From the IMG/VR virus record IMGVR_UViG_3300025000_000057: a stretch of 64,000 nucleotides of DNA; one strand, given 5' to 3'. Both the position numbers and the translations under genes were made by a program. Positions 2,697-61,590 of the stretch are shown one piece after another (positions within the stretch are counted from its first letter, which is position 1; each line of letters opens with the position of its first letter). Below the pieces are notes generated by a model. That model worked only from the letters and a program-made list of their open reading frames with translations, was not told where the DNA came from and searched no databases. The stretch is from a virus. Taxonomy: Duplodnaviria > Caudoviricetes.

Positions 2697-5282
2697 TTAA
2701 TATGGTTGTACATTAACAATGGTGGTGATTTGTTTTAAAGTTCCAGGCGGAATTACGGTTAGTTTAACCTTAGATCTACCAAGAACCCTGTCAAGATTAC
2801 TAGCAATAATCTCGAACTTAACATCTGTAACACTGCCGTCACCAACCGGTACCGGTTTAAGAGCACTAAAACGTTTTTCAATAGCGGTACCCATGGCATT
2901 TTGATTCGTTACAGAAGGAGCTTCACCAATATACGGACGACATGCTACCCTAAGTTCGTCAACGCACTTCTTAACAGACCGCCAGTTAACTAAGTTAGCA
3001 TAATCACTACCTGGTTGGGCAGCTGTCATACTGTCAGTTACAGTTACGGTACGGCCATTATCTTCAACTCCATAAGTAACAAACCGAGCAGCAGTTAAAG
3101 CATTCAACTGTTGATTACCGTAAGTATAACGTAATCCGACAATACCAGGAACTTTCTTACCAAGAGGACTTGAACTTACAGGCGTAGCAGAGATCATACC
3201 TGCATAAATAGCGGCGGAGTTAACATTGTACCTTCCGAGCACTTGGTGCTTAAATGTTACATCCGGGCCAGCAAGTACGGACATATACCTACCAAGGTCG
3301 AAAAGTTGACCCTCGTCGTCATATATAACATTACCAGCAGTATCCTTCATAAAGTAGTTATTCGGACAATCATTTATTAAGTGATTAGCATGATTGTAGA
3401 TATCCAGTAAGGATGTATCCTCGGGAGAGTTAGTGGCAATGATACCATGAACTACCCGGCTTCTAAAAGAGATAACGGCGCAGGCCATACCAAGCTGGTA
3501 ACCGAAGTTATTCTCAGGATTCGGTAACTCATCATCTGTGAAAACATCCATTGGAACGATCATATCGACCTTATAGTTCTCTAACAGCTGGTATGCACCA
3601 AGAGTTAGGTATTCACCAGTAACCGGATCTTTCTTACCACCCATAGCCTCGAATAGTGCCTGCTTGGAAATGTCTATACCACTATTCCCACCCTCGAAAT
3701 AACTCTTAGCCATACTTGCCATGGTCTTGGTTAGCAAGTTATTGAAATGGGTTTTAGTACGAGCTTTAACGATACCATTACCGGTATCTAAATCAACATT
3801 AATAGCTTGTACCATGCTATTAAAAGTCGGGTATTTTAAAGAACTGTACTCTAACGGTTTGGTACTCGGGCCGACCTTAGCTACCGGCATTTGGATAATC
3901 AGTTTCTTACCTACTACTTGTCCAGCCACATTTAATACATTTTCAACCCATGCTGAGGTTTGATTATATACATCACCACCCCAGGGGGTTTCCAAAGTTA
4001 TCTCCGGAGTTACGGTACTGGTTAGTTCGTAAGTATACAATGTTACGAGATCGATACCGGGCTCTAAGCGAGCTTCTGCTTTAACAGTAAGTTTCTTGGT
4101 CTCAAGATCTACAGAGAACAGATTGGCAACAATGGCCGTTCCCTTAACAAGCAAACGAGTTGTTTCTAACATAGGAACGTGAGTCAGGTCGTATACAGTA
4201 TCGCTACCTTTAGCAATCCAGTCGATAACCGTACCGTCCACTTTAGAGGTATAGTTTTCGGTATAGGTAACCATGTCGGATTCGTTTCCATCACCAACTA
4301 AATCAACAGCGTATTTAACAGTAATCAGTGAGTTAGCTTTACACACATCGGCCTTAATTGTAACCGTAGCGTTTACAAATACCGACTCTGTTATCTCTGC
4401 TAAAACGCTACTATCAGATACTTTTATTAATGCAATCTTGTATTCGTATAGTCCGCCTTTAGAGAATTTAGCACTAAACTCTTTGGATTCATCATCAAGA
4501 ACGAATCCAGTAGTACCGCCATATATAGCGACTCCGTTGGTAAAGGGCATTGGTTGGTACACGCCTGCATCATCACGATATTTAAGAGTTATATCAGCCG
4601 CCTTACTAATATCTGTAAGAGTAATTCTAATTTTAACATCTTCGTCCGCATTTACATTAGCAATAGTATTAATTTTGAAGTCTGCTTCTTGATTAGCGCC
4701 AACAGGAGCTGCAAGTAAGTTAGAGTAGATTATAGATTCAATACCATCATCTTCTCCGCCAAACGGAACATCGGGCTGTACGGTGGCCGTACTAGCCTTG
4801 TTCAACTCATAAGCTGCAGCAAGTAAAGCATCTGCATCGGCCTTAACTTCAACAATTTTAGCTACAGGTGCATGTCCAAGTACGAAAGTAACTTCGTTAT
4901 TACCCTTGGTAGTAAAGACCTGCTCGTAGGGAGTTGGGTCTTTGTATAGAATAGGGTTGGCTTCTATTTTTAATGAAGCGCCATGACCGGACACTCGCAT
5001 TAAACGGACATCTCGACAACCAGATTGCCAAACTTCTTCAAAACCTCGCAGCAAACTCGCTCCATTAGGAATACCAGTATCATCAACCACTTTACCGAAC
5101 ATGCTGGCAGTAGCCGGATCTACAGCTACCGGTGTGTACATTGGCCCATCGGTAGATGTACCCATAATTAATACGGATTCAGTCTTTGGAGGGTTTTGCT
5201 CAGGTTGTAATGCCGCAAAACCGCCATCTTTAAATTCTACAAGATGGCCCGGTAAATATGGATACATATCTTTGAACGCCAT
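2697..5282 (-). CDS. Tail sheath protein with inserted Ig-like/surface domains
   Basis: N-terminal YPYLPG...VLIMGTSTDGP.Y.PV and C-terminal sheath domain (A.FVTYGV....V.V.D.MT...Y.NL...R.V..CV..LR.....YIGE); ~330-aa central insertion. Confidence 0.85.
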   Translation of the reverse strand: MAFKDMYPYLPGHLVEFKDGGFAALQPEQNPPKTESVLIMGTSTDGPMYTPVAVDPATASMFGKVVDDTGIPNGASLLRGFEEVWQSGCRDVRLMRVSGHGASLKIEANPILYKDPTPYEQVFTTKGNNEVTFVLGHAPVAKIVEVKADADALLAAAYELNKASTATVQPDVPFGGEDDGIESIIYSNLLAAPVGANQEADFKINTIANVNADEDVKIRITLTDISKAADITLKYRDDAGVYQPMPFTNGVAIYGGTTGFVLDDESKEFSAKFSKGGLYEYKIALIKVSDSSVLAEITESVFVNATVTIKADVCKANSLITVKYAVDLVGDGNESDMVTYTENYTSKVDGTVIDWIAKGSDTVYDLTHVPMLETTRLLVKGTAIVANLFSVDLETKKLTVKAEARLEPGIDLVTLYTYELTSTVTPEITLETPWGGDVYNQTSAWVENVLNVAGQVVGKKLIIQMPVAKVGPSTKPLEYSSLKYPTFNSMVQAINVDLDTGNGIVKARTKTHFNNLLTKTMASMAKSYFEGGNSGIDISKQALFEAMGGKKDPVTGEYLTLGAYQLLENYKVDMIVPMDVFTDDELPNPENNFGYQLGMACAVISFRSRVVHGIIATNSPEDTSLLDIYNHANHLINDCPNNYFMKDTAGNVIYDDEGQLFDLGRYMSVLAGPDVTFKHQVLGRYNVNSAAIYAGMISATPVSSSPLGKKVPGIVGLRYTYGNQQLNALTAARFVTYGVEDNGRTVTVTDSMTAAQPGSDYANLVNWRSVKKCVDELRVACRPYIGEAPSVTNQNAMGTAIEKRFSALKPVPVGDGSVTDVKFEIIASNLDRVLGRSKVKLTVIPPGTLKQITTIVNVQPY

Positions 5283-5295
5283 GTGCCTTCCTCCT

Positions 5296-5916
5296 TTAGG
5301 ATTCTATAATATTAGTTGGATTTATTACTTCGGCTAGTATTTGTAGCTCGTGTAGAGTTCGTGTGCGCTCTACCATTGTTTCAACGACATAGGCATTATA
5401 GATTAATGTCGTTTCGCACAATTTCTGCCTACTTGATTTTTCAATCTTAGGTTTTTCTTCCTTTTCGAATTCTAACTGAAGAAGACCATGCTCTTTAAAG
5501 TACCCAACATAATTCTCCAGAAAGTATTCAAGTTTACCAGCCATGACTCTACTTGCACGATTTGTTTTGTGATAACATTTCCATGCAACATTACATTTGA
5601 AGATTCTTTGCTTTATAGTTAAGTGAAATCCCGGATTATCCGGGTCATCCATAACATGCATAACATGACTTCTAAAGCTTTTGAATTGTTCTGCCCTTTT
5701 TCTTTCTCTTAACTCGAATGTAATATGAGGAGCTGGTTGAGTTTCAGGATCGTTACCGGTAGGCTCCTCTTCAGAATAAATACCCCAGTTATTACCCCAT
5801 GCTGCATTTAATATCTTATGAAGAGCATTGCTAAACCCATCAAGAGTAGCACAATCGTTGCCGGAATCGTCAAGTGTAAAGGGATCGAAGGTAACCTTGG
5901 TTTTAAGTTGATCCAC
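5296..5916 (-). CDS. Tail completion/terminator-like protein (putative)
   Basis: Lies between the two sheath genes; 206 aa; P.ITFEL..R motif. Position-based call. Confidence 0.4.
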   Translation of the reverse strand: MDQLKTKVTFDPFTLDDSGNDCATLDGFSNALHKILNAAWGNNWGIYSEEEPTGNDPETQPAPHITFELRERKRAEQFKSFRSHVMHVMDDPDNPGFHLTIKQRIFKCNVAWKCYHKTNRASRVMAGKLEYFLENYVGYFKEHGLLQLEFEKEEKPKIEKSSRQKLCETTLIYNAYVVETMVERTRTLHELQILAEVINPTNIIES

Positions 5917-7549
5917 TGGCCAGGTTCACCTCCATTGGAACTTCAATATCTTGTGTAGTATACTTTCCTGCCAACTTCAACGAAGCTCTCCACCAGGTAG
6001 CGGTTGTTCTGTCTAACAAAAGGGAACCGTTTAATATTGCATTGGCTTTCTTTAACTCTTCCAATACTTTAGTTGAACCCTCTGTAATCTCTTTGTGAAG
6101 TACCGCCCAATCCCTTGGTATAGTACGACCCTTATATCTTTTAAAGAAGTTGTTTAGAAACCATAAGGTATATTGAACCATCTTCACATTTATTACATCG
6201 TGCATATCACTACTCGGTAGCGAAGGTGTTACTCCATTGTGTATAACGAGATTGTATTTAGGAGACACTCTACACGCAACTACACCCATTGTAGATAGGA
6301 TCTTAAGTTCTTCTGTCTCATATACCGGCCGGTATTTAGGTACTTTCTTAGTACCATCCCTATTTAATACAAAATCAGATGGTACTGGCATATTAGTTGT
6401 GTGGTTCGTCATACTACTCTTGGCTAACATGCCTGCATATATAACAGCTCCATTATCCCAATACTCATTTTCAAACCCCTCCTGAAATAAGAAGTCACCA
6501 GCAAATATAGAGATATACCAACCCTTATCTTTTAATCTAGAACCTTTAACTTCTGATAATCCTAATCTATCGTTAAATGCAGTTACTTGTAGAAGTCGAG
6601 ATGTATAGAAGTATCCAAGATCCTGCATCCTGTTTAATAACTCTTCTTTAAACGGTCTAAGCCCAATAACACCATGAGTTACAAATCCCGATGTTTCCTG
6701 ATTCCTACAGAAATCAATTAATTGCTCATGAAAGCTACATCTCTTTTGTTCAACCGTGTCGTATAGCATCAATACATCATCATTAGAAGTATATCCGGAT
6801 TCTCCGTATATTCCAGAGCCATAATAGCTCGGATCGTATACATCATCGAAATAAACACCTAGTGGAACAATTAGATTAATCCCTCTACCTCCTAGTATCT
6901 CATAGGTAGTGTGTAAAGCTAGATACAAATCATCTTTAATTAAAGATGTACCATCATTTCCGCCGGATAGGTATTGCTCGGGTAAATTCATACCAACCAT
7001 GGATATTGAATTCATAAATGGCGTAAGAGTATTTGCATATACAAAGTTATTACCAGCATCAGTATCTCTGTTGATAGCTTGAACTAGTTGTATAAAAGTT
7101 GGGAATATATCAAGATAATACGCTATAGGTTCGCCTATTTGCTGCTGTGGATAAAATACTAAAGCCCATTTAACAATTTCTTTATTATCAGAGAGATTTT
7201 CTATGACAATCTTGATTTCGTTATATTTAACAGCAGCGCCTTTGCTTCTTAAGATGAGACATTTACACATCTGACTAGTAGCTTCGTCTAAAGCGTAATA
7301 AGTAAGTTTTGCGTAGCTACCACTTACTTTAACTAGGAAATAATTAAGATCCGGGTACTTGCTATATCCCTGAAGAAATCCCTTATATAAAGTTCCTTCA
7401 GTTCCGAATACATTCACGGCTTGTTCTGGTGAAGTTATCTGCTTTGGCTGATTAACAGGCCCGTCATTTCCTGTTCCTAAAAGAAATACGCTGTTAAGGT
7501 ATGGTATTTCCTTCTCGACTACACCATCTGGCCGATGATATCCGTACAT
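5903..7549 (-). CDS. Second tail sheath-like protein
   Basis: VFLLGTGNDGPVNQPKQITSPEQAVNVFG sheath N-terminal motif; LSGGNDG; C-terminal region parallels 2697-5282. Confidence 0.7.
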   Translation of the reverse strand: MYGYHRPDGVVEKEIPYLNSVFLLGTGNDGPVNQPKQITSPEQAVNVFGTEGTLYKGFLQGYSKYPDLNYFLVKVSGSYAKLTYYALDEATSQMCKCLILRSKGAAVKYNEIKIVIENLSDNKEIVKWALVFYPQQQIGEPIAYYLDIFPTFIQLVQAINRDTDAGNNFVYANTLTPFMNSISMVGMNLPEQYLSGGNDGTSLIKDDLYLALHTTYEILGGRGINLIVPLGVYFDDVYDPSYYGSGIYGESGYTSNDDVLMLYDTVEQKRCSFHEQLIDFCRNQETSGFVTHGVIGLRPFKEELLNRMQDLGYFYTSRLLQVTAFNDRLGLSEVKGSRLKDKGWYISIFAGDFLFQEGFENEYWDNGAVIYAGMLAKSSMTNHTTNMPVPSDFVLNRDGTKKVPKYRPVYETEELKILSTMGVVACRVSPKYNLVIHNGVTPSLPSSDMHDVINVKMVQYTLWFLNNFFKRYKGRTIPRDWAVLHKEITEGSTKVLEELKKANAILNGSLLLDRTTATWWRASLKLAGKYTTQDIEVPMEVNLASGST

Positions 7550-39346: not shown

Positions 39347-40507
39347 GTGTGTAACAATAACTGGTGGGAAGGTAGTTCTGATGGTCGTAACATACAACCA
39401 GGAATTAGTAGACAGATGCTTATTGATGCTGGTATAGTTTCTGGTCGGAAGAGTTCTGACGGAGGAGACGGTTGCTTTATTGCAACAGAGATATATGGTG
39501 ATTCTCAGGCAAACGAAGTCAATCTGTTACGTCTTTATAGAGATGTAGTTATGCGTAATAGTTTTATAGGTAGACGATTGATTGACTTTTATTATGGGGT
39601 ATCTCCTACATTAGTTAAGTTAATTCGTAAGTTTCCCATTACTAAGAAAGTAATCACACCAATACTTAATACGATCGTTACCTGTGTTAACGAGGAACCA
39701 TCTCTAAGAAATGAAGAGTGCGATATCTCAATCCAGTTCAATACTGGATGTAATCTTGATTGCAAATTGTGCTTCCGGAAGCATGATACAGAAAGGAATA
39801 ATAAACATATCTATCTACAGAACTTCTGGAACTTTATAGATCGCTATAATTTCGAGCACGGCATTGAATGGATTATATGGGAAGGTAGAGGAGAACTATT
39901 CGTAGATTACATGTTTCCTTTTTGCCTGAATAGAATCTGTGAGAGACATCCTAATATTATTCATACAGTAATCACTAATGGCACAATAGATGCTCTAGAT
40001 GAACTTAAGTATCCTGAGAAGGTATACCTTTCTATATCTCTTGATGGCTTAAGAGATGTTCACGAGGATAACAGAGGTATAGGTACATTTAATAAGACGG
40101 TTGCATTTATAAAACACGCCTTAACAATGGGATTTGCCGACGTTACAATTCGTTCTATTGCTACAAAACGTTTTCTTTCTCAGCTACCACAGTTTAGTGA
40201 TTTTGTAAAAGAGTTATCCTCTGATATACATGTTTACGTACAGGAAGTAATACCTCCTTTTGACAAGTCTATGGATATTGAATATCTTTACACATCCAGG
40301 GATAGTATCGAAGTTACATGTACAGGCTTTACTAATATCATCCTTGAAAAGAAACATCACCTGCACAAACAGATTTCATTACATCCAGAGGGCATCTTTA
40401 ATTGCAATAAGCCTACATGTAAGATAGCTGACTATCATCATTGTATACCCGATGTGCTATCTGCTTATAATTTATCTAGGCTTGATTGTAAGAACTGTAA
40501 ATCATAA
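39347..40507 (+). CDS. CFI-box domain fused to radical SAM (SPASM/twitch-like) enzyme
   Basis: GGDGCFIATEIYG...V..LR.YRD....S.IGR..IDFYY.VSP; then CNLDCKLC (CxxxCxxC), GRGE, TNGT, SISLDG...H...RG.GTF; C-terminal ISLHPEG...C...C...CKNC. Confidence 0.8.
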   Translation: MCNNNWWEGSSDGRNIQPGISRQMLIDAGIVSGRKSSDGGDGCFIATEIYGDSQANEVNLLRLYRDVVMRNSFIGRRLIDFYYGVSPTLVKLIRKFPITKKVITPILNTIVTCVNEEPSLRNEECDISIQFNTGCNLDCKLCFRKHDTERNNKHIYLQNFWNFIDRYNFEHGIEWIIWEGRGELFVDYMFPFCLNRICERHPNIIHTVITNGTIDALDELKYPEKVYLSISLDGLRDVHEDNRGIGTFNKTVAFIKHALTMGFADVTIRSIATKRFLSQLPQFSDFVKELSSDIHVYVQEVIPPFDKSMDIEYLYTSRDSIEVTCTGFTNIILEKKHHLHKQISLHPEGIFNCNKPTCKIADYHHCIPDVLSAYNLSRLDCKNCKS

Positions 40508-45311: not shown

Positions 45312-45379
45312 TTATTTAAATTCCTGCTTTACACTAAATTAATTTATTGCCGAATATACGGCGGAAAGGGGTATGTCAA

Positions 45380-46591
45380 ATGACAACCTTTAATCAAATG
45401 ATGGAAGATATGCAAGCTGCTAATGTACAGTATCAAATGTTAATGAATCTGGAATATGTTAGCTACGATTACTGCCCTGTTGTTACTGGTATGTGTAGCA
45501 ATACTATGTTCTGCAGTGCTTGCCCTGAATTAAATAAATTAAATAATAAGGAGGAAGTTAAAATGATGAATATTAATAACCAGTTTGAAATGTTGATGGG
45601 TGAAGTTGCTGAGGATTACTGTCCGATAGTTAATGATATGTGTGATAATCATCGTTGCACTACTTGCTTAGATATGGCTCTGTACAATACCGATTATAGT
45701 ATTCTCCCGGTTGCCGATGAGTTTGAGATTACACCGGTAGTTGCCCCTGTTATTACCCCGACTGCCGGCTTGAGTAAGATGAAGAAGGCTGAGCTGATTA
45801 ATGAATTAACCATGGCGCGTGAGCGGTATGATAACCTCTATGAGGCACATTCAGAGATGAGCCATGATTACTTTACCCTGGTTAATGACGAGTCGGATTA
45901 CTGTGATACCTGTGATGTAGTAGCTGGTTTAGAAACCCGTATTGATAATGCCATTCAGGTGTACAAAGAGCAAGAGGCTGTTATTGCTGCCCTGCGTCAG
46001 AGCTTGCTAATTGCCTGTAATAATAACACTGCCAAAATGGGTGTTGTCATGAATAACGTACTAAAGAATGCTCCAGCTGTTAACCAGGAGTTAATCAAGA
46101 GCTATAGTGCCCGCAATGCTAAGCCTGCACCGGCACCGCAAACTCAGGTTACCGTACCGCCGGTTGTAACTATTGAGACTGTAGAGCCTGTTTACACAGA
46201 GCAGCCCTGGATGATAAACAGCATCATTAAGTTCCAAGGTAAGAAAAAGGGCACCGCTGTTATACCGGTAGTAGACGCTACTTGTCCCATTTGCGGTAAG
46301 AATGGTATACCCATTGATGAGGCTAACTACAGCCATAGGAAGTTTGTACCGGGTACTGCAATTTGTGCTCATTGTCAGAAAGCAATCCGTGATGCTAATT
46401 TCATACCTCAGATTAAAGCATTAGTAACTAGTAGTACTCATACTGACAGCATAGTGAATGTTATAAAAGCCGCTCTTAATATCAATCAAGCTCCTGTAGT
46501 GGCTGAAATAGTTGGACAAAGTAATACCAGCCTAGATAATGTTAGACAAGCTCAAGATGCTGGTGTAGATATCTCAGATATGAAGTTCTAA
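45380..46591 (+). CDS. Multi-Zn-finger coiled-coil hypothetical protein with duplicated N-terminus
   Basis: ATG 45380 after AAAGGGG; two DYCP.V..MC.N..C..C units; C-terminal CPICG...EANYS...AICAHCQK finger. Confidence 0.75.
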   Translation: MTTFNQMMEDMQAANVQYQMLMNLEYVSYDYCPVVTGMCSNTMFCSACPELNKLNNKEEVKMMNINNQFEMLMGEVAEDYCPIVNDMCDNHRCTTCLDMALYNTDYSILPVADEFEITPVVAPVITPTAGLSKMKKAELINELTMARERYDNLYEAHSEMSHDYFTLVNDESDYCDTCDVVAGLETRIDNAIQVYKEQEAVIAALRQSLLIACNNNTAKMGVVMNNVLKNAPAVNQELIKSYSARNAKPAPAPQTQVTVPPVVTIETVEPVYTEQPWMINSIIKFQGKKKGTAVIPVVDATCPICGKNGIPIDEANYSHRKFVPGTAICAHCQKAIRDANFIPQIKALVTSSTHTDSIVNVIKAALNINQAPVVAEIVGQSNTSLDNVRQAQDAGVDISDMKF

Positions 46592-46764: not shown

Positions 46765-47016
46765 TTATCTAGCTTTGTATCTATACTTAAGATATTTAGT
46801 CCTAATAAACCATATACCATTTCTTGCACGGCGTAACCATCCGTCTTCTCTAAGTTGTTTGATCATACTTTCTTTACCTATTTCTATACCTATATTGATT
46901 AGGTATTCTCTAATAGTAGAGGTATCGAAGTCTTTAAGTTCGTTACCTTTTATTCTGAAGATAGTCGCTCTACTCTTATTGAGTAAGCTTGCGACCTCTT
47001 CTGCATTTAGAAACAT
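46765..47016 (-). CDS. Small HTH DNA-binding protein with KilAC/ANT-like C-terminal segment
   Basis: LNAEEVASLLNKSRATIFRI helix-turn-helix; IGIEIG..SM..QLREDGWL; RBS GAGGGTG; only credible minus-strand gene in 35.5-64 kb. Confidence 0.65.
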   Translation of the reverse strand: MFLNAEEVASLLNKSRATIFRIKGNELKDFDTSTIREYLINIGIEIGKESMIKQLREDGWLRRARNGIWFIRTKYLKYRYKAR

Positions 47017-47091: not shown

Positions 47092-47125
47092 ATTATAATC
47101 TTATATAGATTGGTTTGTCAAACTC

Positions 47126-47386
47126 GATACCCGGCTTTACGGCCAACACCTTTTATTATTACTCTACTATGGGCTCCCCTGAGCATTGAGGTAGGGCGAG
47201 GTGAGGTAAACCCGGGTATCAAAACTCTCATGTTTATGCTTTATTTACGCTATTTACGTGAACATTTAAAAAGCTTTATTTCTATTGATTCCCCGTATTT
47301 AAAGGTTTTTGCCCGTTTATTCACTGTTTATATCCTATGAGAAACTCTCCCTGGCACGTCCCGACCAAGAGGGTATTTTTCATAGG
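47126..47386. other. Structured non-coding interval
   Basis: GATACCCGGCTTTAC(47126-40)/GTAAACCCGGGTATC(47206-20) and CCTATGAGAAA...TTTTTCATAGG (47334-47386) stems. Confidence 0.45.
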
Positions 47387-47434
47387 CTATGATGTGACAG
47401 TGGTACACTTATAAAGAGGGGAGGTGATACAGGG

Positions 47435-47665
47435 ATGTCTAGTAAGGTAAAGCATTCTAAGACTTATGTTGTGCATCATAGAGGTAGGAGTGCTGCTCGT
47501 GGTTGTGTTATTTTTGGCAGGTATAGGGTAGGTGCACGTAGTGAAAGAGAGGCTATGGTTCTTTTACGGAGAGTAGTTGGTAAGCATAGTAAGGTTAATG
47601 TTTATTTTGAGGTAAGGGAGGAGGAGAGGTTATTACCTTATGGTGTGGTGATACAGGATTGTTAG
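47435..47665 (+). CDS. Small basic hypothetical protein
   Basis: GGGGAGGTGA RBS. Confidence 0.7.
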   Translation: MSSKVKHSKTYVVHHRGRSAARGCVIFGRYRVGARSEREAMVLLRRVVGKHSKVNVYFEVREEERLLPYGVVIQDC

Positions 47666-47728
47666 GAGGAAGCGATACAGGTGGAGGGACATTTTTTTAG
47701 TTCTATACTCGATTAGGGAGGTGATATA

Positions 47729-48001
47729 TTGTCTTTTCCTAGACGTTGTTATAGGTGTCTTTACCGTAAGTGTGTTACTAGAAGGGAAGCTGATCCACCT
47801 TGTATTGAATGCCTTCCTAACTCAAATAATACAACTGGTTATGCTTACTTCGAATCGTGTGGAGAGGTACCATACTCTAAATGCTTCTTATGTATTCTGT
47901 TAGATAAGAATACCAGTGTATGTGCTAATTGTTTATTAGATTACTTCGATGGTCTAGGTCTTACCTCATTCTCTCTTATGATAGGAGGTGATATAGATTA
48001 A
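47729..48001 (+). CDS. 9-Cys paralog P1
   Basis: CYRCLYRKC...PCIEC...YFE...PYSKCFLC...CANC; GGAGGTG + TTG. Confidence 0.8.
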   Translation: MSFPRRCYRCLYRKCVTRREADPPCIECLPNSNNTTGYAYFESCGEVPYSKCFLCILLDKNTSVCANCLLDYFDGLGLTSFSLMIGGDID

Positions 48002-48053
48002 CTCTAGTGATAAGAAGAGGTTTCACATTATTATAGGTGCGGCAAGGGGTATC

Positions 48054-48299
48054 TTGACATCCCCTACATGGCCCGTTCAGAGTGACAAACATGGGTTTTA
48101 TTCTAAGGGTAAGTTAATACCTTATGTGTGGGTAAGAGGTATGTTAGATGATCATAGGGTGCAGATATACTATTTTGAGGGATGCTCACCTATTGTGTTG
48201 ACTAAGGAAGACGATACCCATGTCAGGGTAGAGTGTGGCGGCAAGGTAGGACGTTTTGTTACCCAGGGTGATGAATTTACATGGTCTAAATGGAGGTGA
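48054..48299 (+). CDS. Small hypothetical protein
   Basis: 81 aa; AAGGGG RBS. Confidence 0.55.
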   Translation: MTSPTWPVQSDKHGFYSKGKLIPYVWVRGMLDDHRVQIYYFEGCSPIVLTKEDDTHVRVECGGKVGRFVTQGDEFTWSKWR

Positions 48300-48304
48300 T
48301 ATAG

Positions 48305-48568
48305 ATATTTAAGAATTGTGCATTCTGTTTATACTTAGGTTGTTCTAATAAGACTGATAACCCATGTGAGCATTGCGCTCCCGGTTGGGAGTTTACCTAC
48401 TTCGAATATGTTAGATATTTTCCATGGGAGTACTGTCTTGAATGCAAGAATCTTAAGCATTTACAAAATACCTTCTCTCAAGGTTTATCTAGTTCTATAT
48501 GTGGAAAGTGTATTGAAACTTACATGAGAGGTGAAGGTTTGTCTAGTTTTAATTCTATATTAGATTAA
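48305..48568 (+). CDS. 9-Cys paralog P2 (ATA start; not in track)
   Basis: IFKNCAFCLYLGCSNKTDNPCEHC...YFEYVRYFPWEYCLEC...ICGKCIETYMRGEGLSSFNSILD; GGAGGTG 6 nt upstream; in-frame TAG immediately 5'. Confidence 0.8.
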   Translation: MFKNCAFCLYLGCSNKTDNPCEHCAPGWEFTYFEYVRYFPWEYCLECKNLKHLQNTFSQGLSSSICGKCIETYMRGEGLSSFNSILD

Positions 48569-48573
48569 AGGAA

Positions 48574-48840
48574 GTGAATCTATTGATCAATCGTTATAGA
48601 GTGTGCAGTAGTTGCCTATATGTTGAGTGCTTAAGAGGCGTTGGCGATACTATATGTTATGAGTGTTGTACTATAGGAGATAATGCTTATCATGAGTTTG
48701 CAAGATACTTTCCATGGAGGTATTGTCTTAGCTGCAATAGAATATCCATGTTAGGTAAGAAAGGTTTATGTTCTGAGTGCATCGTATACTATATGAAAAG
48801 TGGTAGATGCATTAACTATAATTTAGAGGTGGTATCATGA
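48574..48840 (+). CDS. 9-Cys paralog P3
   Basis: CSSCLYVEC...ICYEC...YHEFARYFPWRYCLSC...CSEC. Confidence 0.8.
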   Translation: MNLLINRYRVCSSCLYVECLRGVGDTICYECCTIGDNAYHEFARYFPWRYCLSCNRISMLGKKGLCSECIVYYMKSGRCINYNLEVVS

Positions 48841-49127
48841 CTCATGCTGTTAATCTAAAGCTATCATTGGATGATATTCTAGTCTCATTGTGTGATACTC
48901 AGTGTTTGTATACTAAGTGTACAGTATTTGATAGTACGCCTTGTTTAACTTGTAGAGATAATCCAAATAGACCTTACTTTGAGTGTAGAGATAGAATCTC
49001 TATGGCACTACACCCTTGTTTAAAATGCGAACGTTACACTAGTCTAAAGAATCTCTCTAATTCCTGCAGATTATGCCTATGGGTATACGGGATGAAGAGA
49101 GTCTTTCCATATTTCAAACCTATATAA
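48837..49127 (+). CDS. 9-Cys paralog P4
   Basis: CDTQCLYTKC...PCLTC...PYFE...PCLKC...CRLC. Confidence 0.8.
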   Translation: MTHAVNLKLSLDDILVSLCDTQCLYTKCTVFDSTPCLTCRDNPNRPYFECRDRISMALHPCLKCERYTSLKNLSNSCRLCLWVYGMKRVFPYFKPI

Positions 49128-49131
49128 GGAG

Positions 49132-49413
49132 GTGTTTATTATCTTAGGGAAATATGCATACTGCCCTAGTTGTTTATACCATAAATGTATTGAACGTAGC
49201 TCGGGTGGTGAAGACGAACCATGTGCTGAGTGTAGGAGTCGTAAATTCTTTGAGTTTAAAAGAATGTTTCCATGGAATTATTGTGTTAGATGTATTAGGT
49301 ACTCAGACCTTGTAAAGGGTTCAGATGTTTGTACAAGTTGCGTATTCCTGTATATGTACAATAACGATAAGGTACCTGAAAATTATAAGGAAAGAGGTAA
49401 ACTAGATGAATGA
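49132..49413 (+). CDS. 9-Cys paralog P5
   Basis: CPSCLYHKC...PCAEC...FFEFKRMFPWNYCVRC...CTSC; start uncertain (GTG overlaps the RBS). Confidence 0.8.
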   Translation: MFIILGKYAYCPSCLYHKCIERSSGGEDEPCAECRSRKFFEFKRMFPWNYCVRCIRYSDLVKGSDVCTSCVFLYMYNNDKVPENYKERGKLDE

Positions 49414-49702
49414 TACTTACCCAAAGGGTTGTTGGTCTTGTCTATATGTTAACTGTGGTGTAGCCGCTCAAGATAAGGCCCGAGCAATGGATTCACCGTG
49501 CCTTGAATGTACTAGTAGAACCGTAGACGGGGAGTATGTACTATATCCTTACTACGAGAGGGCTATCTTATCATGGCAAGATTGTTCTATCTGCAAACAT
49601 AAAGGTAACCCAATGGCTGATTGCGTTTTCTGCAAGACAACTAAGACTAACTACGGAGTATATGCATACTTCAGTAAATGGGAGGGTAATGACCGTGAGT
49701 AA
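49406..49702 (+). CDS. 9-Cys paralog P6
   Basis: CWSCLYVNC...PCLEC...PYYE...SWQDCSIC...CVFC. Confidence 0.8.
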   Translation: MNDTYPKGCWSCLYVNCGVAAQDKARAMDSPCLECTSRTVDGEYVLYPYYERAILSWQDCSICKHKGNPMADCVFCKTTKTNYGVYAYFSKWEGNDRE

Positions 49703-49943
49703 AGAGCAGCAAGCAGCTGAGATAGTCGTTAATGCTATCAAGTATGGGTGTCGGAAAGGTGCCCAGGCATTTGATAAAGGCGTAGATTTATACCAGCAAC
49801 TTGGTGACCATACCTATAAGTACACTCCAGATGAAGCTCCTAACGTAAAGCGTGTCGTTGGGGGTTTCTTTGCTTTAACCGGAGGTACCTTAGGTATCAC
49901 TCGAAGCCTAGCTAAGTTCTTCTTTAATAAGGCTTTTAAGTGA
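49689..49943 (+). CDS. Small hypothetical protein with C-terminal hydrophobic helix
   Basis: ATG 49689 after GGGAGGG; the track start at 49536 is over-extended. Confidence 0.65.
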   Translation: MTVSKEQQAAEIVVNAIKYGCRKGAQAFDKGVDLYQQLGDHTYKYTPDEAPNVKRVVGGFFALTGGTLGITRSLAKFFFNKAFK

Positions 49944-50090
49944 TATTTGGTAGGCCCGTATTAAGAGGAAGAGTAGTTAATGGTATGTAGACTCAGTCCT
50001 TGTTATTTCAAGGGTGGTATAAGGGCGGAGTATAATACTATACAAACCCTAATACTTGCTACATGATAGTAGTGAAAAGAGGTGAATTTA

Positions 50091-50249
50091 GTGCTCTCTA
50101 GAGAGTACATGGAAAAGAAATTATCCGAGTGGACTACGTATCCTGAAGGATGGATACGTAGTTTATCTGATAGCAAACTCTACTCCGTTTATAGAAAGAC
50201 CAGCTTAGAGGTGCTATCAAATATACGTAAAGATTGGGGGCTAGAATAA
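50091..50249 (+). CDS. 52-aa small protein (not in track)
   Basis: AGAGGTGA + GTG; MLSREYMEKKLSEWTTYPEGWIRSLSDSKLYSVYRKTSLEVLSNIRKDWGLE; TAATG coupling to the next gene. Confidence 0.6.
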   Translation: MLSREYMEKKLSEWTTYPEGWIRSLSDSKLYSVYRKTSLEVLSNIRKDWGLE

Positions 50250-50452
50250 TGGAAATTTGTCCAGAGTGTGGTAAGGAATATGATATCATGATTCACTTAT
50301 ACTGTCCCGAGTGTATAGACAAAGAGTATATACCTAAGACCACTCCACGTAAGAAAGTAAAGTTATACAGTACCGATGCTCCTGGTAAAAGTGTTTGCGG
50401 GAGTTGCCGTGGTGTTGGTTGCGTAGGATGTCAGCCTAACCGTTATTTATAA
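50249..50452 (+). CDS. Small Zn-finger protein
   Basis: CPECG...CPEC...CGSC...CVGC. Confidence 0.7.
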   Translation: MEICPECGKEYDIMIHLYCPECIDKEYIPKTTPRKKVKLYSTDAPGKSVCGSCRGVGCVGCQPNRYL

Positions 50453-50477
50453 GGTTAACATATAGACCCTGGGTAGG

Positions 50478-50515
50478 GTTCACTTCTATTGTTGAGATAA
50501 ACAATAGAAGTGAAC
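50478..50515. promoter_or_regulatory. TGTT-N6-AACA hairpin H1
   Basis: GTTCACTTCTATTGTT-GAGATA-AACAATAGAAGTGAAC, followed by ATATAT and an RBS. Confidence 0.7.
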
Positions 50516-50532
50516 ATATATAGGAGGCAGAT

Positions 50533-50814
50533 ATGAAAGACTTATACTGGCTATGCCTATGTGGTACTTGCTTATATTATACCTGTGTTTTATCACGCAA
50601 TATGGGCAATGTGAGTGATATACCTTGCGAGGATTGCCTAACTTATAAAGATAATAGTAGGTATCATGAATTTAAGAAACCTATACCATGGCATAAGTGT
50701 ATAACATGTAAGAATCTTTCAGAGTTTATTAATCATTCTGGCAATTGTTATACATGTATAAAAGCCTATATGAATTCAGATACACTGGTTTATTATAAAG
50801 GAGGTATACTATGA
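50533..50814 (+). CDS. 9-Cys paralog P7
   Basis: CGTCLYYTC...PCEDC...YHEFKKPIPWHKCITC...CYTC. Confidence 0.8.
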   Translation: MKDLYWLCLCGTCLYYTCVLSRNMGNVSDIPCEDCLTYKDNSRYHEFKKPIPWHKCITCKNLSEFINHSGNCYTCIKAYMNSDTLVYYKGGIL

Positions 50815-51605
50815 AGAGTTTACCATGGGTTGATTTCACACGTCGTAACGATCCGGCGCATCCATTCGGGCCCGTACTGCTGCAAAAGAGTCTTGATAGG
50901 TACGGTGCATATGTTTTCTGTTTCTGGACTAAGAATCCTGGTACTGTTGCTGATTTATATCGTAATCAGATAAGTCAAATGATGTCCAAAGATACACTCG
51001 TACTGGCGCAGGTGACACTTAATAATTATTCCAGTATAATGGAGCCGGGTGTTCCGAGTTTTAATACACGCTATCAAGGATTGGATAGATTACTTCGCCT
51101 AATTGGAGGGCCTGGGCATATTAAGCTCAGAATCGATCCTATTATCTTAGGTTATACTACTCCTAACATGATCCGCACCTCCCTAGAGGCTGGACGTAGT
51201 TTGGGTATACGCAGGTTTGTTATGAACTTCTTAGTACCTAGCTATAAAGGCGTAGGTAATATACTTATTCATAGAGGTTTGATACGACCTAATGACCTTA
51301 CTCCATCTCAAGAACGTATCCTTAGTACGGCTCGCTTTGTTTCCGAAGAGGCACAACGAGTAGGAGCTATTCTACAGGTATGTGCCGAAAGTAACTGGAT
51401 TGGTCAACATGTATCTGGCATTCAAATAGCATCATGTTCAGATCCGACTTGGGCTACACAGGTTAGACCCGAGTTAACCGGTATCTTTAAAGCAAATCCA
51501 TCCCGTAAAGACTGTGGTTGTTGTTACTCGGCCGACTGGGGAGTGTATGCTTCACGAGGTGGATATGTTTGCCCAGGAGGTTGTTTATACTGTTACGCTC
51601 AGTAA
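50811..51605 (+). CDS. DUF1848-like (spore-photoproduct-lyase-related, C-terminal CxxxCxxC) protein
   Basis: TRRNDP...FWTKNP...T.NNY...EPGVP...RIDPI...CAE...SC...R..CGC..S.D.G.Y...CPGGCLYCYA. Confidence 0.7.
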   Translation: MKSLPWVDFTRRNDPAHPFGPVLLQKSLDRYGAYVFCFWTKNPGTVADLYRNQISQMMSKDTLVLAQVTLNNYSSIMEPGVPSFNTRYQGLDRLLRLIGGPGHIKLRIDPIILGYTTPNMIRTSLEAGRSLGIRRFVMNFLVPSYKGVGNILIHRGLIRPNDLTPSQERILSTARFVSEEAQRVGAILQVCAESNWIGQHVSGIQIASCSDPTWATQVRPELTGIFKANPSRKDCGCCYSADWGVYASRGGYVCPGGCLYCYAQ

Positions 51606-51682: not shown

Positions 51683-51994
51683 ATGGCTAATAATACTGCC
51701 ATGGATAAAACAATTGCCGTACTAACTGCGCTTCGGGCTGGTCAGGAAGTTCTTATTGGTGACTACATTTTCGTTTATGATGAAGAAGATGATAAAATTG
51801 GTATTCTAGTTGATGTACATGATGCATCTAAGGGTGAGGATTATCAAGCAATACACTTCTTAGCTGACAACTTTAGTATCCAATGGCTGATGAATGCCTG
51901 TAATAAGATGTCTAATGGAGATCTCCTTATATTGACAGCAACAAAGGTACTTACTTCACTGAATAAGAGGAGGGATACCAAATGCGCGAAGTAA
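51683..51994 (+). CDS. Hypothetical protein
   Basis: AAAGGAGG RBS, 103 aa. Confidence 0.75.
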   Translation: MANNTAMDKTIAVLTALRAGQEVLIGDYIFVYDEEDDKIGILVDVHDASKGEDYQAIHFLADNFSIQWLMNACNKMSNGDLLILTATKVLTSLNKRRDTKCAK

Positions 51995-53655
51995 CCGGTG
52001 ATATATTTGAAATTGGTCGTTACGGTATTATCTGTGTTACCACTAATGGCGTCGTTAAGAAGGACGGCGCCTTGGTTATGGGTAAGGGAGTTGCTCTTAA
52101 CTTTGCTAATAAGTTTCCCACTATGGCGGAAAAACTTGGTCAACTAGTTAAAGCAAACGGTAACCATGTATACAGTCTCGGTTCGTTAGTACCAATAGAC
52201 GATCCGAGTATAAGTTATACTGTTGTTAGCTTCCCCACTAAGGCACATTGGCGCGACAACTCTACTGTTGCACTGGTTACTAAATCGGCTGCTGAGTTAA
52301 AAGCACTTGCTGATTCCCAAGCTTGGCCCGGGCCTATATACCTACCGGTTCCCGGATGTGGTAATGGAGGTCTTAACTGGGGAGAATTGAAACAGTTATT
52401 GCCATCTTATCTTGATGATAGATTTGTAATTGTTCACTATAGTAACTCTGTGCAACAAAATACACAACCCGCTGCTCAGCCGGGTACCCAAGTAACTACT
52501 CAGACTACCACTCTTGAATGTAGCTCTCAAGGAGATAATCGGTTCAGCGCATTTGGCGCACATGTAAATGCGCTTGGCAATAAGATAGAGATGCTCTATC
52601 AAGAGGCTAAACGTTTTACCGATGACCCAAATGAGGGCCCGACCGATTGGAGAAATGCCAAGGGCCGGCCGGTAGTGGCCGTAAGTCTTAATGGTAAGAG
52701 GTTTGGGCCTGAATATCTTACACCGTGGTACTGGTATCTTTGGACTCGGTATTTCCTTGAGAATCCAGATTTATTACAATACGCTCGTCAATTTAATACT
52801 TTTACGGATATGTTCCGTGGTAAGAGTACGAACTGCCAGGCAGATGTAATTGCATTCATGGCTAAGAATGGCCTTAATCCAATAATGGCTAAACCAGCAT
52901 ATCAAGAGATTGATCAATTATTCAATCTTAATTACTTATTTAAGAATCCTACACCGGAGCCGGGTGCTACTCCTGTATATATGTTAAATAGAACTATCAA
53001 AGAGGGATGTAGTGATATTCTCACATGTATGGTTACCGGTCACCGCCCGAATGGTATTAATGGGAAAGCCGGCTGGAACTTTGGAGATTCTCGTAATCAA
53101 AAGTTAATCACATACTTATCCACAGTTGTTAATAAGATGGCTATGGAGAATGGTACCCGGATATTCATAGAGGGAATAGCAGCTGGCGGAGATTTGTTAT
53201 TTACCAGAGCTGTACTTGATGTGAGTCATTTGCATCCGGAGTATAACCTGCAGCTTTGGAACTACATCCCGTATCCATGTGCGCCGGATAGACTTAAGTA
53301 TCAATGGAAAGCAGTTCTTGATAGCGCATTAAACCATCCAGGTGAGACAGTAATATGTAGTCCTGACCCTGTTGGTAAAGATGATAAAGAGCAGCGCATT
53401 GATGCAGCTAAGAAACTCTTCTATCGTAATGAGTGTATGGTGCGTACGTTACCCGTTCTTCCGAATGTCGGTATGATTATTGCCATATATTCAGGTTTAC
53501 AACCCGGGTTATATGCTATCGAGCAAATCGCTCAGCTAATGGATCCAAAGACCAAGGGTGGTACAGCTAATACACTCTTGACAGCTGTTAAGAGATGGAA
53601 AGAGGATAAGAACTTTCAACCTAAGATTCTCGTTGTCAATCCTAACAACTTCTAA
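51982..53655 (+). CDS. Macrodomain - NADAR-like - SLOG(YspA-like) triple fusion
   Basis: GDIF...CVTTNG.....LVMG.GVAL...FPTK.HW...PGCGNGGLNW (macro); LECSS.GD.RFSAF...IE..YQ.AK.F...DWR.AKG (NADAR-like); VTGHRP...GIAAGGDLLF...F.RNECMV...Y.G...GGTANT (SLOG). Confidence 0.7.
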   Translation: MREVTGDIFEIGRYGIICVTTNGVVKKDGALVMGKGVALNFANKFPTMAEKLGQLVKANGNHVYSLGSLVPIDDPSISYTVVSFPTKAHWRDNSTVALVTKSAAELKALADSQAWPGPIYLPVPGCGNGGLNWGELKQLLPSYLDDRFVIVHYSNSVQQNTQPAAQPGTQVTTQTTTLECSSQGDNRFSAFGAHVNALGNKIEMLYQEAKRFTDDPNEGPTDWRNAKGRPVVAVSLNGKRFGPEYLTPWYWYLWTRYFLENPDLLQYARQFNTFTDMFRGKSTNCQADVIAFMAKNGLNPIMAKPAYQEIDQLFNLNYLFKNPTPEPGATPVYMLNRTIKEGCSDILTCMVTGHRPNGINGKAGWNFGDSRNQKLITYLSTVVNKMAMENGTRIFIEGIAAGGDLLFTRAVLDVSHLHPEYNLQLWNYIPYPCAPDRLKYQWKAVLDSALNHPGETVICSPDPVGKDDKEQRIDAAKKLFYRNECMVRTLPVLPNVGMIIAIYSGLQPGLYAIEQIAQLMDPKTKGGTANTLLTAVKRWKEDKNFQPKILVVNPNNF

Positions 53656-61371: not shown

Positions 61372-61590
61372 ATTCCAATTAAAGATGAGATACTAAAAGA
61401 GTATTCTCCATTAGTAAAAGGTAATAGCGTTCTTTCTCGTCTAGATAAACAACAGAATATTCTAGCTCATATCGAGGATATCAACAATCTAGTTAAAAGA
61501 GAGAGTAACCATGGAGTTACAAATGTCAAAGTATTAAGCAATCTGTATATTGCAAAGTCTATAGCATTACAGGCTTTAACAAATTTGTAG
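61372..61590 (+). CDS. 72-aa protein with ATT start (not in track)
   Basis: GGAGGTG 7 nt upstream of ATT; IPIKDEILKEYSPLVKG...LQALTNL; fills the gap between genes exactly; no ATG/GTG/TTG in frame after TAA 61324. Confidence 0.6.
   Translation: MPIKDEILKEYSPLVKGNSVLSRLDKQQNILAHIEDINNLVKRESNHGVTNVKVLSNLYIAKSIALQALTNL

Follow-up and report, generated by a model that had tools for sequence, protein, structure and literature searches.

A diverged family of seven nine-cysteine small proteins encoded in one region of an uncultured phage

The 64,000-nt stretch of viral DNA held as IMG/VR record IMGVR_UViG_3300025000_000057 (Duplodnaviria; Caudoviricetes), referred to below as the window, carries seven plus-strand reading frames of 85-98 codons within positions 47729-50814 that align as one family, named here P1 to P7. 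Twelve alignment columns are invariant; they hold nine Cys, the Leu-Tyr pair that follows the second of these and a single Glu, with the overall pattern C-x2(3)-C-L-Y-x2-C ... C-x2-C ... E ... C-x2-C ... C-x2-C. Overall pairwise identity among the seven proteins is 25-38%, and the loops between the Cys residues differ both in sequence and in length. A family profile was searched against the 864 six-frame stop-to-stop open reading frames (ORFs) of the window and recovered exactly P1-P7 (E 1e-24 to 2e-31), the best non-member having an E-value of 0.24. When each copy in turn was left out of the profile, the omitted copy was still found (E 7e-7 to 2e-19), with noise at E-values of at least 0.01. 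Judged by these searches, the copies are homologous and not merely Cys-rich. An earlier, model-made annotation of the same DNA (the original prediction) had proposed seven copies in this interval, a Cys/CLY/E pattern and a conserved Cys scaffold with highly variable loops, all of which are borne out by the profiles and the alignment.

Within the family, P2, P3, P5 and P7 form a tight core, P1 is nearest to P2, and P4 and P6 are outliers. Synonymous sites between the paralogs are saturated and long identical tracts are absent, indicating that the paralogs are old. Owing to this saturation, the ratio of nonsynonymous to synonymous substitution (dN/dS), proposed as a check in the original prediction and calculated among the paralogs, is uninformative. 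The isoelectric points (pI) range from 5.3 to 8.7, with four proteins mildly basic (8.0-8.7) and three acidic (5.3-5.8), which argues against generic DNA binding. Inspection of the P1-P7 sequences revealed no signal peptide or membrane segment, and comparison of the N-terminal with the C-terminal halves gave no significant evidence of internal duplication.

Searches for relatives returned only the phage itself. Scans of the members against Pfam, PHROGs and NCBIfam gave no significant match (best Pfam E 0.017), nor did a sequence-profile search of the PDB. Only the window's own products and P0008, a variant of P1 described below, were obtained from a word-indexed search of 5.8 billion clustered proteins, and the same was true when 1.84 billion representatives were searched exhaustively with an HMMER profile. 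IMG/VR, JGI metagenome contigs and GenBank phages yielded nothing beyond the same phage. The statement that no described family is matched thus stands across these databases and large protein sets. The sequence family is new and, at the sensitivity of HMMER, appears as an orphan confined to this phage lineage.

A second allele of P1 provides evidence on how the family varies. The protein P0008 is encoded by a 523-nt contig (L001) from sequencing run SRR1658469. The 230 nt upstream of the gene and all sequence from ~47896 onward are 91-100% identical to the window, with the flanks at ~99%. In contrast, codons 1-55, which extend from the start to just before the third Cys pair, are only 56% identical, with three small gaps. 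The synonymous difference (pS) is 0.64 in this segment, close to saturation, as compared to 0.13 over the last 35 codons of the gene. In amino-acid sequence, the N-terminal half of P0008 is 38% identical to that of P1 and 35-44% identical to those of P2-P7. Being no closer to P1 than to the other paralogs, it appears to be an eighth, otherwise unsampled N-terminal module joined to the C-terminal module of P1. The replaceable N-terminal module of P1 corresponds to window positions 47729-47895 (plus strand), exchanged for a different family module in this allele. The module-swap allele is a new observation.

Run SRR1658469 is the source of both L001 and L010 and of both alleles; a 56-kb contig from it carries the window-type allele and begins at exactly the same base as L001. 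Such a shared contig start is the signature of an assembly bubble, indicating that the two forms of P1 are present together in a single sample. Two further assemblies are interrupted at 47861 and 47886, where the variable segment reaches its 3' edge. Hypermutation of the kind produced by diversity-generating retroelements was rejected, as 44% of positions differ, with changes of all kinds and with indels; note that no template-like repeat was found within 47300-51000. Intragenomic gene conversion was ruled out because the window contains no donor. From the sequences, recombination with a diverged relative is the simplest explanation of the exchange. The original prediction had proposed a library of diversified scaffolds, each presenting different loops to a different host target. 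The diversification in this proposal gains substance, in that an otherwise near-identical phage from the same sample carries a wholly different N-terminal module in P1. No support was obtained for a separate host target of each paralog, for an anti-defence role, for any particular metal (Zn3Cys9, two Zn or Fe-S) or for redox sensing.

Further variants are few. Over 16.5 kb, contig L002 differs from the window by two single-nucleotide polymorphisms (SNPs), one of which is a nonsynonymous change in a P1 loop (position 47789, A21P) that is also present in contig L003. In addition, P7 of L002 contains a 22-nt inverted duplication (between window positions 50747 and 50748; L002:11320-11620) located after the eighth Cys, which shifts the frame so that the ninth Cys is lost. 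The insertion extends a 14-nt palindrome, TTATACATGTATAA, to a perfect 58-nt palindrome and uncouples P7 from the downstream DUF1848 gene. Template switching during mutation and a fold-back during assembly are the two candidate origins; the loose end of an independent contig from a sediment run agrees with the insertion. Alignment of the contigs of four runs to the stretch revealed no further variants. Variation in this population is concentrated in the family genes, at small counts.

The genes of the family are closely packed. P1 (47729-48001, 90 residues) starts at a TTG immediately after GGAGGTGATATA. P2 (48305-48568, 87 residues) begins at an ATA and has an intact frame with all nine Cys present. 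P3 occupies 48574-48840, with 88 residues from GTG 48574 or 85 from TTG 48583; the latter is the likelier start, as the GTG abuts the Shine-Dalgarno sequence. The ATG of P4 (48837-49127, 96 residues) overlaps the P3 stop (ATGA). P4 is divergent, its first Cys pair being C-x3-C and the Pro-Trp being absent. P5 (49132-49413) has 93 residues from GTG 49132. This codon lies inside its own Shine-Dalgarno sequence, whereas ATT 49138 or ATC 49141 has the usual spacing; P5 may therefore start at one of these codons, or by re-initiation after the P4 stop. P6 (49406-49702, 98 residues), the most divergent member, starts at an ATG and shares its first 8 nt with the end of P5. P7 (50533-50814, 93 residues) starts at an ATG and ends in a stop codon that overlaps the DUF1848 start codon, also an ATG. 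All seven lie on the plus strand.

From orf76 through orf82 (47435-49943) the gaps between genes are -8 to +5 nt and the order is orf76, P1, an unrelated ORF, P2, P3, P4, P5, P6, orf82. This tight packing suggests one translationally coupled operon. Its first gene, orf76 (47435-47665, plus strand), encodes a basic orphan protein of 76 residues and is called in all public contigs. The ORF between P1 and P2 is an orphan unrelated to the family (47997-48299, plus strand; 100 residues from ATT 47997 or 81 from TTG 48054). The last gene of the coupled block, orf82 (49695-49943, plus strand), is likewise an unrelated orphan and overlaps the end of P6 by 8 nt. Three unrelated ORFs (~830 nt) separate P6 from P7. 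The description of the genes as a tandem array thus needs qualification: seven copies do lie on one strand, but unrelated ORFs interrupt them between P1 and P2 and between P6 and P7. A perfect 16-bp hairpin with a 6-nt loop (50478-50515, plus strand) is located just upstream of the TATAT box and ribosome-binding site of P7, suggesting that P7 belongs to a separate expression unit.

Initiation in the operon involves an unusual ribosome-binding context. The 12-nt extended motif GGAGGTGATA[TC]A has four copies in the 64 kb as compared to 0.44 expected. All four lie between 47420 and 48303, preceding four consecutive genes that start with ATG, TTG, ATT and ATA, respectively; the first copy (47420-47431, plus strand) is 3 nt ahead of the orf76 ATG. 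As the original prediction had pointed out, P2 opens at an ATA and escapes gene callers. Its frame begins directly after an in-frame TAG and offers no ATG, GTG or TTG ahead of the first Cys; the ATA at 48305 is 5 nt past GGAGGTGA. Public gene calls miss P2 entirely and report P5 only as a 49-residue fragment or as an ORF in the wrong frame. The 15-nt sequence GGAGGTGATATAGAT (48292-48306, plus strand), which spans the ribosome-binding site and ATA start context of P2, is an exact repeat of 47984-47998. The identical 15 nt therefore run into the ATT of the ORF between P1 and P2 (ATT 47997, preceded by GGAGGTGATATAG) and into the ATA of P2. The genes that precede the two copies read through them in different frames, so that it is the nucleotide motif itself that is conserved and not a duplicated coding end. 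This shared context favours real initiation at the P2 ATA over a dead gene, and initiation there is probably real, if weak. Among plus-strand ORFs of at least 60 codons in the 35.5-64 kb region whose only Shine-Dalgarno-spaced start is ATT, ATA or ATC, three of four are in the array; the fourth is at 61372.

Upstream of the operon, a perfect sigma-70-type promoter (TTGACA, 18 nt, TATAAT; window 47092-47121, minus strand) faces a lone minus-strand gene resembling helix-turn-helix (HTH) proteins (46765-47016). This promoter points away from the orf76/P1-P6 operon, a layout resembling that of a switch. Downstream, the DUF1848 protein (50811-51605, plus strand), translationally coupled to P7 in the window, has a C-terminal CxxxCxxC cluster of the radical-SAM type. 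Further downstream lies the gene for a protein of 557 residues (51982-53655) in which a macro-like match to a 'phosphatase' PHROG (residues 1-162) is combined with a match to the DarT1-associated NADAR family (residues 204-293), making it a candidate enzyme for the reversal of ADP-ribosylation. The radical SAM enzyme encoded at 39347-40507 is nearest to the SPASM-type peptide maturases. Its N-terminus bears a CFI-box-CTERM domain (NCBIfam NF041770, E 1.5e-18), usually positioned at the C-terminus of putative substrate proteins. The plus strand around the array thus encodes this CFI-box/radical SAM fusion, the DUF1848 Fe-S protein, the macro+NADAR fusion, a DUF488 fusion and many orphan ORFs. 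The macro+NADAR, DUF488 and DUF1848 Fe-S neighbours of the array are of the counter-defence type.

Two other Cys-containing proteins of the region were compared with the family. An orphan protein of 414 residues (45347-46591) contains two N-terminal copies of D-Y-C-P-[VI]-V-x2-M-C-x-N-x2-C-x2-C and a C-terminal CxxC...CxxC zinc ribbon. It is unrelated to the nine-Cys family in profile-profile comparison (hhalign probability 0.3%), and a zinc ribbon of 67 residues from the region likewise showed no relation in such a comparison.

The remainder of the window places the family in a phage. On the minus strand, the first 35 kb hold genes for sheath, portal, large terminase, major head protein and endolysin. 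The tail sheath (2697-5282, minus strand) shares 37% identity with its counterpart in the Bacillus jumbo phage 0305phi8-36 and 35% with the one in the Moorella phage MTATph1. A second, shorter sheath-like gene is present at 5903-7549. By these protein similarities, the window belongs to a large myovirus that is a distant relative of Bacillus phage 0305phi8-36, and the phage probably has a Firmicutes-type host, with which its strong GGAGG ribosome-binding sites agree. Identical or near-identical contigs come from groundwater (aquifer) and sediment metagenomes, one of them reaching at least 56 kb downstream of P1. Among the RNA runs searched, none is listed as containing the stretch. A search of the literature on DUF1848 and on comparable phage arrays of Cys-rich proteins found nothing relevant.

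Structure prediction gave models of low confidence. AlphaFold2, supplied with an alignment of eight sequences, reached a predicted local distance difference test score (pLDDT) of 54 for P7 and 50 for P3; the AlphaFold check suggested in the original prediction has therefore been run, with these low scores as its outcome. ESMFold2 gave a pLDDT of 35, the value for P7 in a predicted complex with DUF1848, Zn and a 4Fe-4S cluster, and the Atlas model scored 0.40. Foldseek comparison with the PDB returned no match. In both weak AlphaFold2 models helices begin at the second and fourth Cys pairs, the last helix being the best scored, as in treble-clef or zinc-ribbon-like fingers. Four CxxC pairs spaced 9-20 residues apart and flanked by aromatics normally mark a pair of structural Cys4 metal sites. 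The apparent viability of the natural chimera P0008 suggests that the two halves are separable modules.

Taking these results together, our preferred reading, to which we assign a probability of about 45%, is that the family is a lineage-restricted scaffold with two metal sites, used as a set of diversified, dispensable binding proteins. Each small cytoplasmic protein would fold around two tetrahedral metal sites, probably occupied by Zn. These sites would be formed by the four CxxC knuckles, grouped into two half-modules, one N-terminal and one C-terminal, with a small hydrophobic core contributed by the invariant Leu-Tyr, the aromatic-Glu motif and the Pro-Trp. The freely varying loops between the ligands would serve as binding surfaces. 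Such proteins may be made early in infection and act as accessory binders of host or phage macromolecules, P1-P6 being produced from the single coupled operon beside the divergent HTH-gene/promoter region and P7 separately, together with the DUF1848 Fe-S enzyme. Diversification would have combined old duplication with the exchange of whole half-modules between co-circulating phages. The mixed pI values, the lack of signal or membrane segments, the saturated paralogy, the counter-defence-type neighbours and the population variation are what lead us to accessory binders under diversifying pressure. Homology, copy number, orphan status, gene packing, the module swap and the population variants are observations. 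That the proteins bind metal, fold as two modules, act as binders or counter host defence is inferred; targeting of host defence in particular is plausible, judged from gene context alone.

Several points weigh against this interpretation. All structural models are of low confidence, and the proposed two-site, two-module fold derives from the Cys pattern and a single recombinant. The four-pair pattern fits a cross-braced (RING/ZZ-like) fold as well, in which case the halves would not be independent. Cx2Cx4C occurs also as an Fe-S ligand set, as in ThiC. The population evidence is thin, amounting to one alternative allele, one SNP and one insertion, and the last of these, which creates the perfect 58-nt palindrome in P7, could be an assembly artefact.

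A bolder proposal, which we consider rather unlikely, is that the family is a new two-module metal-finger scaffold serving large Firmicutes-type phages as an exchangeable specificity cassette. Co-circulating phages would trade N-terminal modules on a fixed C-terminal one while the genome retained a repertoire of seven, and every combination would block or commandeer its own host factor, for instance a sensor of a defence system. If true, this would be the equivalent, among small proteins acting inside the infected cell, of polymorphic toxin or receptor-binding cassettes.

Other functions were weighed against the binding scaffold. CxxC-pair zinc fingers are common in nucleic-acid regulators, and the paralogs might accordingly be zinc-finger regulators, like the translational activator Com of phage Mu or small transcription factors, each acting on a different phage or host transcript or promoter. 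The divergent HTH gene beside the operon, with its perfect sigma-70-type promoter, and the mildly basic pI of four paralogs (8.0-8.7) would fit such a role. However, the other three are acidic (5.3-5.8) and none is strongly basic, no DNA- or RNA-binding zinc-finger family was matched in Pfam, the PDB or NCBIfam, and it is whole loops that vary and not a recognition helix, so that we regard a regulatory function as unlikely. We judge it quite unlikely that the proteins are small Fe-S or rubredoxin-like redox proteins, serving as electron donors or cluster carriers for DUF1848 and the CFI-box/radical SAM fusion (39347). A generic electron donor is hard to square with seven highly diverged copies, six of which are in another operon, away from such enzymes; Pfam gave no rubredoxin, ferredoxin or WhiB-like (Wbl) match at E <=1, and in the L002 variant P7 is no longer coupled to DUF1848. 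On the other hand, the P7 stop overlaps the DUF1848 start in the window, two radical-SAM-type enzymes are encoded within 11 kb, the aquifer setting is probably anaerobic, and the invariant Cx2Cx4C triad, which goes beyond the four CxxC pairs, is left unexplained by a two-Zn model.

Decay of the array and peptide maturation are far less probable than the binding scaffold. The non-canonical start of P2, and perhaps of P5, and the frameshift of P7 in one variant might be taken to indicate a partly decaying array, with P2 (ATA), P5 (no clean start) and P7 of L002 as functionless pseudogenes left from duplication. Yet seven frames stay open over 85-98 codons in DNA of 39% GC and retain their nine Cys despite saturated synonymous sites, and the ATA of P2 stands behind a 15-nt ribosome-binding context repeated exactly before the ATT of its neighbour; decay is in our view very improbable. 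Tandem arrays of diverged precursor genes are typical of clusters for ribosomally synthesized and post-translationally modified peptides (RiPPs), and the phage radical SAM/SPASM-like enzyme at 39347, nearest to peptide-maturase families and equipped with a CFI-box-CTERM domain, could in principle cross-link Cys-rich precursors of this kind. That the family consists of such RiPP-like peptides is nevertheless very improbable as well. The enzyme is encoded 7 kb upstream with many unrelated genes between, and neither a transporter nor a protease is adjacent. Moreover, the proteins do not divide into a conserved leader and a variable core, their conserved residues, including core-type aromatics, extending across all 90 residues, and CxxC pairs 9-20 residues apart are typical of metal sites. 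No NCBIfam precursor model of radical-SAM RiPPs (sacti- or ranthipeptide type) matches, and membership of that class was rejected on this ground together with the distance to the enzyme gene and the spread of conservation along the proteins.

It is mainly among small orphan phage proteins that new inhibitors of bacterial defence and new host-takeover factors are being found. With seven members on one fixed nine-Cys scaffold, the family is a compact candidate set for screening, and the module swap within one sample shows which part varies. Standard gene callers miss members of the family, namely P2 with its ATA start and P5 with its ambiguous start. So far, this is one uncharacterised Cys-rich phage family from a single uncultured lineage.

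Among known systems, several show a partial likeness that did not survive closer comparison. The family's aromatic-E ... P-W-x2-C-x2-C locally resembles the SW-S-P-C-x2-C of APOBEC3G (whole-sequence E 0.011). A relation to cytidine deaminases was rejected as a chance likeness, given per-domain E-values of 5.9 and 50 and a His in only 2 of the 7 paralogs. Moreover, 7-12 residues separate the Glu from the Cys pair in the family as compared to ~25-30 in deaminases, and proteins of 85-98 residues are too small for the deaminase fold, which comprises ~130 residues or more. WhiB-like proteins, rubredoxins and ferredoxins were discarded, with none in Pfam at E <=1 or in NCBIfam at E <=0.1. The Zn3Cys9 domains pre-SET and CXC, cited as an analogy in the original prediction, resemble the family in having nine conserved Cys in a small domain. 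This analogy finds no sequence support, as neither Pre-SET nor CXC/TCR is found in Pfam at E <=1, and the dense CxC/CxxxxC runs of these domains differ from the four CxxC pairs plus one Cys of the family.

Some resemblance exists to double zinc-ribbon and treble-clef modules with two zinc sites, such as DZR (PF12773), LIM (PF00412) and cross-braced RING/ZZ/MYND fingers, which like the family have four CxxC-type pairs in ~60-70 residues, 9-20 residues apart, with aromatic core residues beside the knuckles. In feature and structure searches of the ESM Atlas, the nearest neighbours are zinc-ribbon clusters, at chance-level scores (0.79-0.84), and no family member matches a zinc ribbon or DZR in Pfam. 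LIM domains follow C-x2-C-x16-23-H-x2-C-x2-C-x2-C-x16-21-C-x2-(C/H/D). A LIM assignment was rejected because no Pfam LIM match was obtained, PDB entry 1x63 reached only E 0.64, and the family differs in pair spacing and in having no conserved His. What sets the nine-Cys family apart from the DZR, LIM and RING-type families is its invariant ninth Cys, in CLYxxC, together with its invariant Glu.

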